Source: a virus
Lineage: Duplodnaviria; Caudoviricetes
Reading direction: 5' to 3' (one strand)
Length of the DNA: 64,000 nucleotides
Virus record (IMG/VR): IMGVR_UViG_3300032324_000938
Location: 1 to 64,000 of that record
Shown here piece by piece: positions 32,696 to 44,396 of the stretch. The notes beneath the pieces were generated by a model. The model ran no database searches. It saw nothing but the letters and a program-made list of their open reading frames with translations, and had not been told where the DNA came from. Position numbers and translations under genes: made by a program. Within the stretch, counting starts at the first letter, position 1. Each line of letters opens with the position of its first letter.

Positions 32696-32779
32696 ATGAG
32701 AGTACAGTATACACATATTAAGCGTTGGGATACATTTACAAATAATAATTGTGAATGTGTTGACGGTGATATTGTATAA
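32696..32779 (+). CDS. Putative leader peptide of tRNA operon 1 (MRVQYTHIKRWDTFTNNNCECVDGDIV)
   Basis: Codons match the downstream tRNA set; overlaps the antiterminator strand. Confidence 0.75.
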   Translation: MRVQYTHIKRWDTFTNNNCECVDGDIV

Positions 32780-32842
32780 ACTTGATTATAGAATAATTTT
32801 AACAATGTCAACCGTCACCTGAGAACAAAGTGACGGTTTTTT
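32761..32842 (+). promoter_or_regulatory. Attenuator 1: antiterminator (32761-32774 with 32803-32817) competing with terminator (32810-32842)
   Basis: TGACGGTGATATTG pairs CAATGTC-A-ACCGTCA; AACCGTCAC/GTGACGGTT stem + U-run. Confidence 0.75.
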
Positions 32843-32943
32843 GTTTTTAGTTCTTGAAGTTCTTTGAGTGTGTGGTAGAGTAGTTAAACAGTGAACGGCG
32901 TAAGTAGTTTACTGGGTGACAAAAAGAAAATTTTAAAAGTCAG

Positions 32944-32971
32944 TTGACAACGGTGAAAGCTGTGATAGACT
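32944..32971 (+). promoter_or_regulatory. Sigma70-like promoter TTGACA-16-TAGACT upstream of the tRNAs
   Basis: Hexamers read directly. Confidence 0.7.
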
Positions 32972-33165
32972 GAGTGAAGAGTAAGGAAGGTTTGAAACTC
33001 CATCTGTTGAACCTCCGCCAGTGAGTCAAGTAATTGACAATAAGGTGAGAACTGGGAAAATCAATTGATTGGTCCGTGGGTGTTATGTATCAATTCAGAA
33101 CCCATAGGGCGATGACAGTATTACTGAGGTGATTACTGTGAATGTTGTAAGTAAGTAATTTTAAC

Positions 33166-33247
33166 GCCGTTGTGAGTTGAGTGGTTGAAAACACCAGTTT
33201 TGTAAACTGGAAAATCATCGCAGGTTCGAATCCTGTCAACGGCTCCA
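33166..33247 (+). tRNA. trnT: tRNA-Thr(UGU)
   Basis: Cloverleaf, loop TT-TGT-AA, encoded CCA. Confidence 0.9.
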
Positions 33248-33259
33248 GTTTATAGTAAT

Positions 33260-33335
33260 GGTGATATTGGTGTAACAGTTAGCATTTGAGTTTGTGAAAC
33301 TCACGGAACGAGGGCGGCACTCGTATATCACCCCA
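33260..33335 (+). tRNA. trnH: tRNA-His(GUG), encoded G-1:C73, T-loop GGCGGCA
   Basis: Cloverleaf, CCA. Confidence 0.9.
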
Positions 33336-33343
33336 ATTTTAAT

Positions 33344-33419
33344 TACCCTATCGTCTAGGTTTAGGACGGATGTGTTCTCTGAGACATCAACCTTGGTGAA
33401 AATCCAAGTGGGGTAACCA
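33344..33419 (+). tRNA. trnQ: tRNA-Gln(CUG)-like with bulged anticodon stem
   Basis: U1-A72 acceptor and CCA; loop CT-CTG-AG needs a 3-nt bulge. Confidence 0.55.
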
Positions 33420-33425
33420 ATTTAT

Positions 33426-33503
33426 GCTTCGGTGGTGAAAATGGATTTATCACACAACGCTACGAACGTTGAGTTTGGGGTTCGAATCCTCACTGAAGCG
33501 CCA
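33426..33503 (+). tRNA. trnR: tRNA-Arg(ACG)
   Basis: Cloverleaf, CCA. Confidence 0.92.
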
Positions 33504-33510
33504 ATTTAAT

Positions 33511-33585
33511 GGCCTATTCGACAACCAGCTAAGTCACCTGACTTTCACTCAGGAGTAGCCGGGGCAGCACCGGCATAGGCTACCA
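33511..33585 (+). tRNA. trnE: tRNA-Glu(UUC), T-loop GGCAGCA
   Basis: Cloverleaf, CCA. Confidence 0.9.
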
Positions 33586-33593
33586 TTTTAAAA

Positions 33594-33680
33594 GTGACGA
33601 GGGCAACAAAGAGACTTAAACCCAAAAGATTGAAGGAGCCCTTGCATGCCGGGTAATTCCTACTGGGGTAATCTCGTCAC
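33594..33680 (+). ncRNA. tRNA-sized structured spacer RNA
   Basis: GTGACGAG/CTCGTCAC terminal stem. Confidence 0.4.
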
Positions 33681-33690
33681 AATATTTAAC

Positions 33691-33767
33691 GGTCACATCG
33701 TCTATGTGTGTTAGGACACCATCCTCTCAAGATGGAGAATAGGGTTCAAATCCCAATGCGACTACCA
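33691..33767 (+). tRNA. trnE: tRNA-Glu(CUC)
   Basis: Cloverleaf, CCA. Confidence 0.88.
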
Positions 33768-33855
33768 TTTTTTGAGGTTCACACAGTATTACATAACCGT
33801 GATCAAGGTCTATAAATGATGTATTAACTGATTGGCTCAGACGACCTCAATAAAT

Positions 33856-33930
33856 ATCCGCCAATGTTCCAAGGATTAGGCGACAGGCTCTCCAAAAGCC
33901 CGTGGGTAAGTTCGATTCTTACGGTGGATG
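33856..33930 (+). tRNA. trnW: tRNA-Trp(CCA), CCA end not fully encoded
   Basis: Cloverleaf, G73. Confidence 0.85.
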
Positions 33931-33979
33931 CATTTCAAAAAAAATAATATTATTTGAGTTCGTGTCTATATTTATTATT

Positions 33980-34651
33980 ATGGACACGAACGCTCAATAT
34001 AAATACACGATATATAAGATTACAAATAAATTGAACCAAAAAATTTACATTGGAATGCATAAAACAAAAAATTTGCAGGACAATTATATGGGTTCTGGAA
34101 AACTTCTAAAAAGAGCAATACAAAAATATGGTGAAGAAAATTTTATTAAAGAAATTTTATTTATATTTGATACCGCTGAAGAAATGTTTTCCAAAGAAAG
34201 AGAAATTGTAAACCAATTATTTATTGAATCAAATAATACTTACAATATAATGGAAGGTGGTTATGGCGGTTATTCTTATATAAACGAATCTGGAAAAAAT
34301 ATACATCATAAAAATATTGAGATTAGGAAAAAGAATTTGTTGACCGGAGATAAGATAAAAGAATTTTTAATTGAAAAAGGATTATTTGAAGAATGGAAAC
34401 AGAAAGTATCAACATCTTTAAAGGAAAAATGGAAACAAAATGCTTTTCATTGGACCGGTAAAAAACATAAAGAAGATACAAAAAAGAAAATCGGAGAAAA
34501 ACTAAAAGTAGCACAATCCGGTGCAAAAAATTCCCAATATGGAACTTGTTGGGTATATCATTCTGAAACAAATAAAAATCTTAAAATTAAAAAAGAACAA
34601 CTACAAACATACTTGACAAACGGATATGTTAAAGGTAGAGTATATAAATAA
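33980..34651 (+). mobile_element. GIY-YIG homing endonuclease (Seg-like) inside the tRNA cluster
   Basis: IYKITNKLNQKIYIGMH...YMGSG motif. Confidence 0.9.
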
Positions 34652-34657
34652 TTTTCA

Positions 34658-42800: not shown

Positions 42801-42844
42801 AAGTTATCGTCTCTTGAAGAAATCGGAGTTTGTCAAAATTTTAT

Positions 42845-42937
42845 GGAGGTGACGTAGATAGTCAGGTTTCTACAGCAGTTTGCTAAACTGCCGTGGTCTA
42901 AAAGCCACTGAGGGGGCAGCACCCTTCGCCTCCGCCA
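42845..42937 (+). tRNA. trnS: tRNA-Ser(GCU), T-loop GGCAGCA
   Basis: Variable arm, G73, CCA. Confidence 0.9.
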
Positions 42938-42943
42938 TTTAAA

Positions 42944-43017
42944 GCGGGTGTGATGTAACGGTAGTCTGGGGCTCTTCCAAAGCCCATGAGAGGGTTCGAT
43001 TCCCTCTACCCGCTCCA
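42944..43017 (+). tRNA. trnG: tRNA-Gly(UCC)
   Basis: Cloverleaf, U73, CCA. Confidence 0.92.
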
Positions 43018-43024
43018 ATTTAAC

Positions 43025-43098
43025 TGGGGATTTGCATAATGGTAGTGCGGCAGACTTTGAATCTGCTTGTGGTGGTTCGATTCCATCATCCCCAACCA
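43025..43098 (+). tRNA. trnQ: tRNA-Gln(UUG)
   Basis: U1-A72, cloverleaf, CCA. Confidence 0.92.
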
Positions 43099-43107
43099 TT
43101 TTATATA

Positions 43108-43207
43108 TGTCGGTTAAGGGTGTAATTTTAGAGAAATTGTAATGAGTGATCATCAGTTACAAGAGTAAGAACTAGTGATCGAAAGATCCGTTCATCAAAC
43201 ACCGACA
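43108..43207 (+). ncRNA. tRNA-sized structured spacer RNA
   Basis: TGTCGGT/ACCGACA stem; GATC-GAAA-GATC hairpin. Confidence 0.45.
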
Positions 43208-43217
43208 ACAATTTATT

Positions 43218-43294
43218 CGGGGTGTATTGTCAATTAGGAGACGGCCTGATCTGGAGTCAGGAAGCTGCAGGTGCAAGTCCTGTCACCCCGACCA
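43218..43294 (+). tRNA. trnP: tRNA-Pro(UGG) variant with C33 and A37
   Basis: C1-G72, loop TC-TGG-AG, CCA. Confidence 0.75.
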
Positions 43295-43300
43295 TTTTTA

Positions 43301-43418
43301 TATCAGACAATGGTAGAGGTTTGAACTTGGCTAGGTCTGAAACAATAACCAACGGCTGTGTTCGGCTAATAATCTGTGGGTTAAATATGCCCATAAAACC
43401 GCCAAGGTGTCTGAGATA
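43301..43418 (+). ncRNA. Structured spacer RNA
   Basis: TATCAGACA/TGTCTGAGATA and CTTGGC/GCCAAG stems. Confidence 0.4.
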
Positions 43419-43429
43419 AGTTTTAGATT

Positions 43430-43606
43430 TGATCGTTGGTGTATAGAATTATAGCACTCTGCCATTAGGAGGTAGATGAGACTGAAGTTGACGAGATAGA
43501 CATTCGATTTAAGTTTATGGTTTCTGTGCGCACAGTGCCGTTGGACTTGACCGAAATATGGAACGCTTAGTGAAATCCTCGTATATTCGCAAGTCACGGT
43601 CATCCA
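43430..43606 (+). ncRNA. 177-nt expanded tRNA-like RNA with UAG anticodon arm
   Basis: Acceptor TGATCGT/ACGGTCA-T-CCA, D-arm and anticodon arm at canonical spacing, enlarged variable and T arms. Confidence 0.65.
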
Positions 43607-43622
43607 ATTTTTGTTTTTTGAT

Positions 43623-43651
43623 TTGACTTATACTATATATTGGTGTAAGAT
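43623..43651 (+). promoter_or_regulatory. Internal promoter TTGACT-17-TAAGAT
   Basis: 9 nt upstream of tRNA-Ala. Confidence 0.65.
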
Positions 43652-43659
43652 TTATAAAT

Positions 43660-43734
43660 GGGCTGTTAGTGATAGTGGTAGCACGGGAGCTTTGCAAGCT
43701 TTAGGGAAGAGTTCGATTCTCTTACGGTCCACCA
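43660..43734 (+). tRNA. trnA: tRNA-Ala(UGC) second copy
   Basis: G3.U70, CCA. Confidence 0.9.
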
Positions 43735-43739
43735 TTTTT

Positions 43740-44312
43740 ATGAATGTTAGTGATAAATATAAATTGTTATGGTTTGCTACTCCGCGTTCTGCGAGTAGAA
43801 CACTACACACAATATTTTGGGATAAATTACAGTTCAAAAACATATATGATTTGAATTGTAGTATGTATACGCATGAAGTTGTATATGATCATAGTATATA
43901 CAATGATTACAAAATAATAATGTGTGTAAGAAATCCGTATTCAAAGTATGTGTCAACATGGCAATGGGCACTAAATGAGTATAATACATTTGAAAATTTT
44001 ATTTTATCAGATTATAATTGGATGGATGTAGAAAATCATGTAATTAATATTTGTGAAACATATAGTAGATCTATTGAGTATTTGATTAAATATGAAAATA
44101 TTGATAATGATGTTGTAAAATTACCATATGATTTAAATTTTGGTTGTGTCAAACAAAATGTATATAAATCTAATTTAAAAAGAATAGATGATGGTAAATA
44201 TAGTGATTATCAATTTTATTATAATCAACAATTAGCGGATGAAGTTTTTAAACGTAACCAAAACATATTTGAATTTTTTGGTTATGAAAGAGATAGTTGG
44301 AAATACTTATAA
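43740..44312 (+). CDS. Sulfotransferase family 2 protein
   Basis: TPRSASRT (5'-PSB-like), VRNPYSKYVS (3'-PB-like), IKYEN and FFGY motifs. Confidence 0.8.
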   Translation: MNVSDKYKLLWFATPRSASRTLHTIFWDKLQFKNIYDLNCSMYTHEVVYDHSIYNDYKIIMCVRNPYSKYVSTWQWALNEYNTFENFILSDYNWMDVENHVINICETYSRSIEYLIKYENIDNDVVKLPYDLNFGCVKQNVYKSNLKRIDDGKYSDYQFYYNQQLADEVFKRNQNIFEFFGYERDSWKYL

Positions 44313-44322
44313 TTTAAAGAGC

Positions 44323-44396
44323 GCGGGTATGATGTAGTGGTAGCCTGCAACCTTGCCAAGGTCGATGTGCCGGTTCAATTCCGGCTACCCGCTCCA
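44323..44396 (+). tRNA. trnG: tRNA-Gly(GCC)
   Basis: Cloverleaf, U73, CCA. Confidence 0.92.

Follow-up and report, generated by a model that had tools for sequence, protein, structure and literature searches.

Leader-peptide attenuators of enterobacterial amino-acid operons include multivalent ones, namely thrL, which senses Thr and Ile, and the leader of ilvGMEDA, which senses Ile, Val and Leu, as well as trpL, hisL and pheL. A further leader-peptide attenuator, pheM, precedes the pheST operon (Phe-tRNA synthetase); it responds to a single amino acid, and the gene under its control encodes a protein. T-box riboswitches, which exceed 200 nt and carry a specifier loop and a T-box motif, have no open reading frame (ORF) and bind uncharged tRNA directly. 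The pheL leaders are documented in PMC3082878. Here, we analyse a stretch of 64,000 nt (hereafter the window), i.e., the first 64 kb of the viral contig IMGVR_UViG_3300032324_000938 (75,398 bp, 32.6% G+C), which belongs to an uncultured giant phage. Two short leader ORFs, each followed by an intrinsic terminator, lie there in front of two arrays of tRNA genes, and sequence comparison indicates that each of these modules is probably a ribosome-mediated (leader-peptide) transcription attenuator feeding the tRNA operon behind it.

The two modules resemble the thrL, ilv, trpL, hisL and pheL leaders in their short ORF, their alternative 1:2, 2:3 and 3:4 hairpins, their intrinsic terminator and a stop codon placed where a terminating ribosome would mask region 2, and putatively in codons tied to the product. 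They differ from thrL/ilv-type leaders in that the genes under their putative control specify tRNAs and not biosynthetic enzymes, in being near-leaderless and devoid of a Shine-Dalgarno site, in sampling 7 to 14 amino acids, mostly by one codon each, where classical leaders have runs for one to three, and in the strong promoters found past the terminator. With pheM they would share a leader-peptide attenuator placed over a component of the decoding machinery, but the controlled products would be the tRNAs themselves; with T-boxes they would share a link from the state of tRNAs to the choice between antiterminator and terminator, ahead of genes that serve translation, but the phage leaders are 115-145 nt long and include a conserved ORF. 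When positions 31000-47000 were scanned with cmscan at E <= 1, only tRNA, tmRNA and a few weak unrelated matches were returned, and none to the Rfam leader families (His_leader, Thr_leader, Trp_leader, Leu_leader and others) or to the T-box; the modules are therefore analogues, not members, of these families. A first-pass annotation, made from the letters of this DNA alone, had proposed codon-matched attenuators at both sites and knew of no such description for tRNA operons; likewise, the literature that we searched contained no description of leader-peptide control of tRNA genes.

Anatomy and conservation of the two modules

The elements of the two modules, and the arrays that they precede, are as follows.

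32659-32687, + strand: leader-1 promoter; -35 box GTGATG in the window (TTGACG/TTGATG in relatives), -10 box TATATA/TATATT, ATG 6-8 nt past the -10 box; kept in relatives
32696-32779, + strand: leader ORF 1, 27 codons, encoding MRVQYTHIKRWDTFTNNNCECVDGDIV; ATG and stop position invariant in 13 variants
32702-32714, + strand: leader 1, region 1; pairs with 32766-32777 in the minimum free energy fold, the helix being 86.5% paired over 13 variants
32761-32777, + strand: leader 1, region 2, i.e., the 5' strand of the putative antiterminator, within the last six codons; its final base is also the first of the stop (32777-32779)
32802-32818, + strand: leader 1, region 3, common to the antiterminator and the 5' arm of the terminator
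32810-32842, + strand: terminator 1; stem-loop 32810-32838 with a 9-bp stem and an A-rich loop, then a U-tract
32854-32971, + strand: two sigma70-type promoters past terminator 1, with extended -10 boxes (TTGAAG-17-TAGAGT and TTGACA-16-TAGACT); kept in relatives
33166-38378, + strand: tRNA operon 1 (T,H,?,R,E,E,W,N,Y,F,K,K,K,D,I,V,R,T,C), interspersed with homing-endonuclease ORFs
41799-41827, + strand: leader-2 promoter, TTGATT-17-TATATT, ATG 8-9 nt past the -10 box; kept in 25 contigs
41836-41889, + strand: leader ORF 2, 17 codons, encoding MNSVSQPSQASQLPSGS; ATG and TGA invariant in 19 variants
41850-41856, + strand: leader 2, region 1 (ACAACCT); pairs with 41895-41901 in the minimum free energy fold, the helix being 100% paired in 19 variants
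41890-41901, + strand: leader 2, region 2; immediately adjoins the stop and can pair with either region 1 or region 3
41917-41953, + strand: leader 2, region 3 and terminator 2; stem 41918-41926 / 41941-41949, then a U-tract
41965-41992, + strand: sigma70-type promoter past terminator 2; conserved
42138-45058, + strand: tRNA operon 2 (V,P,L,L,L,A,S,S,G,Q,P,A,G), with a phage tmRNA at its end

The coordinates and translations of both leader ORFs agree with those of the first-pass annotation, as do the terminators (32810-32838 and 41918-41949) and the sigma70-like promoters that it had placed at 32944 and 41965, to which we add sites at 32854 and 33034. Its claim of mutually exclusive antiterminator and terminator hairpins also stands, with the 2:3 versus 3:4 alternative kept in every variant.

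Among deposited phages, no close relative was found: when both regions were compared by megablast with 50,697 phage records, the matches were tRNA-Pro fragments only, a protein-based locus search using the gene upstream of leader 1 gave no matches, and tblastn of a 1347-aa ORF gave distant tail-fibre-like matches only. Many relatives are present among IMG/VR contigs, including a 295,831-bp record rated complete (G013), and both leader modules are kept in about 30 of these related giant-phage contigs. The core of leader 2, whose nucleotide conservation is high, recurs exactly in 19 contigs, and a looser pattern anchored on its regions 2 and 3 added diverged versions, giving a comparison set of 19 distinct variants; leader 1 was found in 12 further distinct versions, hence 13 variants with that of the window.

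Directly 5' of each leader, a sigma70-type promoter is conserved and places the ATG 6-9 nt after the -10 box, so that both leaders are near-leaderless by promoter position. The leader stops are fixed in place across variants (TAA/TAG, or TGA), the three indels of leader 1 are each of 6 nt and keep the frame, and the proposed frame is the sole plus-strand frame open in all variants. ATG, frame and stop are conserved even in contigs whose neighbouring non-coding DNA no longer aligns. Synonymous variants are over-represented (13/37 codon variants, about 22% being expected), and one Ser site is written with four codons (TCC, TCA, TCT and TCG) among the variants. We infer that the leader ORFs may be translated. 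Leader 1 also has one open antisense frame; a minus-strand ORF of 47 aa (32668-32811) was considered as a conserved feature and rejected, as it starts inside the terminator and is open because the plus strand lacks Leu and Ser codons.

Terminators 1 and 2 are two of the five strong intrinsic terminators on the 75-kb contig, and their GC-rich 9-bp stems are 90-94% paired across variants. A pattern search for this terminator type recovers exactly two in the complete relative G013, each in front of these tRNA arrays; with two such terminators per genome, the same search found no third module of the kind. The full-length RNA of leader 1 is predicted to fold into the 1:2 hairpin (32702-32714 with 32766-32777) plus the terminator, whereas truncation before the 3' arm of the terminator lets 32761-32775 pair with 32802-32817 (2:3). 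Over the 13 variants, the computed energies are -20 to -25 kcal/mol for 2:3, -12 to -15 for 3:4 and -10 to -15 for 1:2. Because region 2 of leader 1 shifts register between lineages, column-wise pair counts under-report its antiterminator, which we thus scored by per-sequence duplex energies. As for leader 2, ACAACCT pairs with AGGTTGT just past the stop, and the energy of the 2:3 duplex is -12 to -19 kcal/mol throughout the variants, with 87.7% pairing when the register is correct; the stretch from the stop to GGTTG is variable, yet it complements the 5' arm of the terminator in some register in each lineage.

More generally, the sequence of region 2 differs by lineage while its complementarity to region 3 is kept in all variants, and in one leader-1 locus (L042) regions 2, 3 and 4 (terminator stem, partner arm and region 2) have all changed jointly. 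Random windows of the genome rarely pair with region 3 as well (p = 0.0013 for leader 1, p = 0.005 for leader 2), and structure counts show 86-87% of cells paired where slid controls reach 26-48%, the helices 1:2 and 3:4 being 86-100% paired and including a few compensatory pairs. Both leaders have their stop codon on region 2 or beside it. Altogether, each site has a terminator between the ORF and the tRNA genes, an antiterminator pairing mutually exclusive with it, a stop so placed that a terminating ribosome would cover region 2 and a region 1 able to sequester region 2, which is the anatomy of a ribosome-mediated attenuator of the trp type.

Codon content of the leaders

The first-pass annotation had reported that 25/26 post-start residues of leader 1 and 15/16 of leader 2 belong to the amino-acid set of their own array, all 14 members being used in leader 1; recounting gave the same figures, and all 7 members are used in leader 2. 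In a census of short ORFs of similar length on the contig, an equal match occurs in 0-1 of 227-471 (leader 1) and in 1-2 of 475-950 (leader 2). Shuffles of the leader body, of which only the stop-free ones were retained, give p = 1.4e-3 (mononucleotide) and 1.2e-2 (dinucleotide) for leader 1, and p = 1e-5 and 1.3e-4, respectively, for leader 2; jointly requiring that leader 1 use all 14 amino acids lowers its values to 2.5e-5 to 3.7e-4. Exact relabelling of the amino acids reproduces the match in 8/38760 cases for leader 1 and 5/77520 for leader 2. The match in the window is thus not explained by base composition, and it is statistically real against both short ORFs and shuffles (1e-2 for leader 1 and 1e-4 for leader 2 with dinucleotides preserved). 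Moreover, the compositions of the two leaders are nearly complementary, mirroring the two arrays.

Among relatives, leader 2 stays significant (shuffle p of 7e-5 to 8e-3; relabelling 0.001-0.005). In leader 1, the codons at which a stall could signal (about 2 to 17) all fall in the operon-1 set in every variant, and the residues outside the set (G, A, M and L) occur only in the GC-rich segment that forms region 2, where a stall would presumably not signal anyway.

A model for the two modules

The coupling of stalling to read-through, and its physiological trigger, are what we infer from this anatomy. Transcription from a sigma70-type promoter would begin at the AUG of the 17- or 27-codon ORF or no more than a few bases away, and the resulting RNA could form either the 1:2 hairpin or a pairing of region 2 with region 3, i.e., the 5' arm of the intrinsic terminator 3:4. 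A smoothly translating ribosome would come to sit on region 2 when it reaches the stop, letting 3:4 pair and ending the transcript; a ribosome held earlier would cover region 1 and free region 2 for the antiterminator 2:3, and RNA polymerase would run on past the promoters further downstream and transcribe the tRNA array. Nearly all codons at which a stall would be effective stand for amino acids of the array behind that leader. Slow decoding of this set, when host tRNAs are scarce, damaged or not yet supplemented, would raise read-through, which would fall again as phage tRNAs accumulate.

Whether the codon match makes such an attenuator a designed sensor of tRNA supply is, in our judgement, an evenly balanced matter. 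That a single leader ORF acts as a multiplexed sensor polling 7 to 14 tRNA species by one codon each, and does so generally in the tRNA arrays of large phages, is a tentative proposal and somewhat doubtful.

Several observations weigh against the full model. At the level of codons, the match of leader 1 is weaker in relatives (shuffle p of 0.01-0.1; relabelling 0.004-0.075), the window holds the best-matching variant, and most amino acids are represented by a single codon, unlike the codon runs of classical leaders. Of the reading put forward by the first-pass annotation, the attenuator is backed by the comparative data, while the codon match is weak for leader 1 outside the window. Translation of the leaders is putative, and neither start has a Shine-Dalgarno site; such sites are rare in this phage, however, occurring in 12/59 real genes of the contig, and since most real genes lack one, a start without a ribosome-binding site is the local norm. 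As regards transcription, each terminator is separated from its array by one to three strong promoters (32854, 32944 and 33034 for array 1, 41965 for array 2), and an attenuator could therefore only add a conditional tier to constitutive transcription. Furthermore, the 2:3 pairing of leader 1 is much stronger than 1:2, so that untranslated RNA may read through by default.

The leaders also fail to follow the few differences in tRNA content between relatives. The first-pass annotation had suggested looking for ORF/terminator modules in related phages and asking whether leader composition co-varies with array content: the modules were found, in about 30 contigs, but the composition of the leaders does not track the content of the arrays. 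Co-variation is hard to test because the partition of tRNAs between the two arrays is nearly constant across relatives. Operon 1 of G010 lacks the tRNAs Phe, Lys, Asp, Arg UCU and Thr GGU, and its leader still has codons for Phe, Lys and Asp as well as AGA (for Thr it uses ACA throughout, which is uninformative). In three loci (L059-L061), leader 2 includes Y, F, K, N and I, of which Y, N and I occur in other variants too, while operon 2 is unchanged and has no matching tRNAs. Likewise, Val codons are found in every leader 1, but a Val UAC tRNA is present in operon 1 of the window and of G013 only.

Finally, some arrays do without a module. G013 has a third tRNA cluster (277362-280821, loci L121-L122, with Arg UCU, Lys UUU, Glu UUC, Met, Ile, Leu CAA and Leu UAA), upstream of which there is no attenuator module, just a promoter and a 67-aa ORF; the Thr-headed array of the distant relative G005 has none either, and no such module was seen at the tRNA blocks of Bacteroides phage crAss001.

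The phage-wide scarcity of Shine-Dalgarno sites has a counterpart in a motif, ATATTTATA, which is AT-rich and found 3-9 nt 5' of the ATG in about 20/74 long ORFs of the contig, e.g., those starting at 3114, 37801, 47459 and 54331. It may be a phage-specific promoter yielding near-leaderless mRNAs.

Alternative explanations

The modules could be true attenuators that report general translation speed or ribosome availability, their resemblance to the tRNA sets being a by-product of constraints from RNA structure and base composition. This explanation, which we regard as rather unlikely, keeps the well-supported anatomy and accounts for the weaker match in relatives and for the indifference of the leaders to tRNA content. 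It also draws on the way the leaders vary: in leader 2, the changes S17Y and L13S/A/F co-vary as hairpin pairs, and not as members of the set, and the nonsynonymous changes of leader 1 are all confined to NAN codon blocks, and such blocks belong to set 1 by default. What it leaves aside is that shuffles preserving dinucleotides still reach 1e-4 (leader 2) and 1e-2 (leader 1), that the near-complementary compositions of the leaders mirror the two arrays, and that all 14 array amino acids are packed into the 26 residues of leader 1 (2.5e-5 to 3.7e-4 jointly). A different possibility is that each site is an independent small gene, producing a short RNA, a micropeptide or both, with a terminator that insulates the tRNA promoters and alternative pairings devoid of any regulatory role. 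Its own promoter, its efficient-looking terminator (A-rich loop, then a U-tail), the separate strong promoters that come next, the high nucleotide conservation of the leader-2 core and the absence of the module at some arrays would all suit such a gene. Yet region 2 mimics the 3' arm of the terminator and, although its sequence turns over, complements region 3 in all lineages, no stop codon is placed anywhere but on region 2, and this type of module occurs only in front of tRNA arrays, while non-conservative changes in the peptides (Q/L, L/S/A, S/V) argue against a peptide acting by its chemistry. We hold this account to be improbable to about the same degree.

It is far less credible still that the leaders are chance open frames in spacers, followed by hairpins that merely terminate upstream genes. 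Short ORFs are common in AT-rich spacers and the hypothesis was framed after the data had been seen, but ATG, frame and stop are kept where the neighbouring non-coding DNA has diverged past alignment, the promoter directly upstream is conserved, and both the shuffles and the ORF census speak against chance.

Implications

Why phages carry tRNA arrays is a 50-year-old question, and current views see in them a means of codon compensation, a replacement for host tRNAs that have been degraded, or a way to escape immunity directed at tRNAs (PMC10264068, PMC11555353). In these two papers phage tRNA arrays counter tRNA-targeting host defences, which is a physiological setting where supply-sensing control would pay off; judged by title and abstract, their subject is tRNAs and anticodon loops, and not regulation by leader ORFs. 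The regulation of phage tRNA arrays was not addressed in the literature that we found. Should the supply-sensor model be right, tRNA supply would be a sensed and regulated quantity, classical attenuation would be extended from enzymes to tRNA genes, and the leader would offer a compact natural design for a multi-tRNA sensor. If the multiplexed version were right as well, a stall on any of the polled tRNAs would raise transcription of the replacement set. It would also be a built-in inducible answer to tRNA-cleaving defences and host tRNA decay, of general reach and not the quirk of one lineage. The link between these modules and defence against tRNA-cleaving host systems is pure speculation on our part, and we put it forward with considerable reserve.

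tRNA genes and other features of the arrays

The tRNA sets were called independently by combining ARAGORN, Rfam and a cloverleaf scan, with hand inspection for some operon-2 genes. Operon 1 holds Thr UGU, His GUG, Arg ACG, Glu UUC, Glu CUC, Trp, Asn, Tyr, Phe, Lys CUU (twice), Lys UUU, Asp, Ile GAU, Val UAC, Arg UCU, Thr GGU and Cys; ARAGORN defaults recover only part of it, His, Glu UUC, Tyr, the three Lys and Ile having been found through Rfam and the cloverleaf scan. Operon 2 holds Val UAC, Pro UGG (twice), Leu UAG/CAA/UAA, Ala UGC (twice), Gly UCC, Gly GCC and Gln UUG, together with Ser UGA (42668-42750) and Ser GCU (about 42845-42937); both Ser genes, the second Pro and Leu UAA were confirmed by hand inspection. 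The sets listed by the first-pass annotation are thereby corroborated, except for the Gln(CUG) of operon 1, which is doubtful. The gene in question (33344-33419) has an 8-nt anticodon loop, UUCUCUGA, in which ARAGORN reads a 4-base anticodon and cannot name the gene, and its identity as Gln(CUG) is uncertain. The same call is obtained in the complete relative G013 and an identical copy exists in G008, while a normal Gln(CUG) is present in operon 1 of relatives.

Many tRNAs of operon 1 (33261-38378) have T-loops that are unusual with respect to TTCRAnn, e.g., GGCGGCA, AGCATTA and AGCGTTA, and score below ARAGORN or Rfam defaults (examples at 33261-33331, 33511-33581, 35206-35287, 35655-35725 and 37231-37300). 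Among relatives, the tRNA sequences are mosaic, some being 100% identical and others unalignable. The 5' leader at 32990-33165, from the promoter at 32944 to tRNA-Thr, is about 95% identical to that of the relative G001 and thus more conserved than the mini-ORF, and a piece of it (33058-33113) recurs with 79% identity upstream of operon 2 in several relatives; this conserved stretch may be a processing signal.

Homing-endonuclease ORFs of the GIY-YIG and HNH types lie between the tRNA genes at 33902-34651 (+ strand) and 36085-36636 (- strand). Operon 2 is closed by the tmRNA (44676-45058), with the tag AEDNVISYDFTSRDVVALAA, which is kept in relatives and has a longer tag in a more distant one. 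Lastly, operon 1 of relatives contains Rfam tRNA matches of 123 nt, i.e., tRNA genes with an insert of about 50 nt (L053:2487-2609, L056:1731-1853, L057:2367-2489 and L058:12756-12878), at the place occupied in the window by the element 34944-35069.

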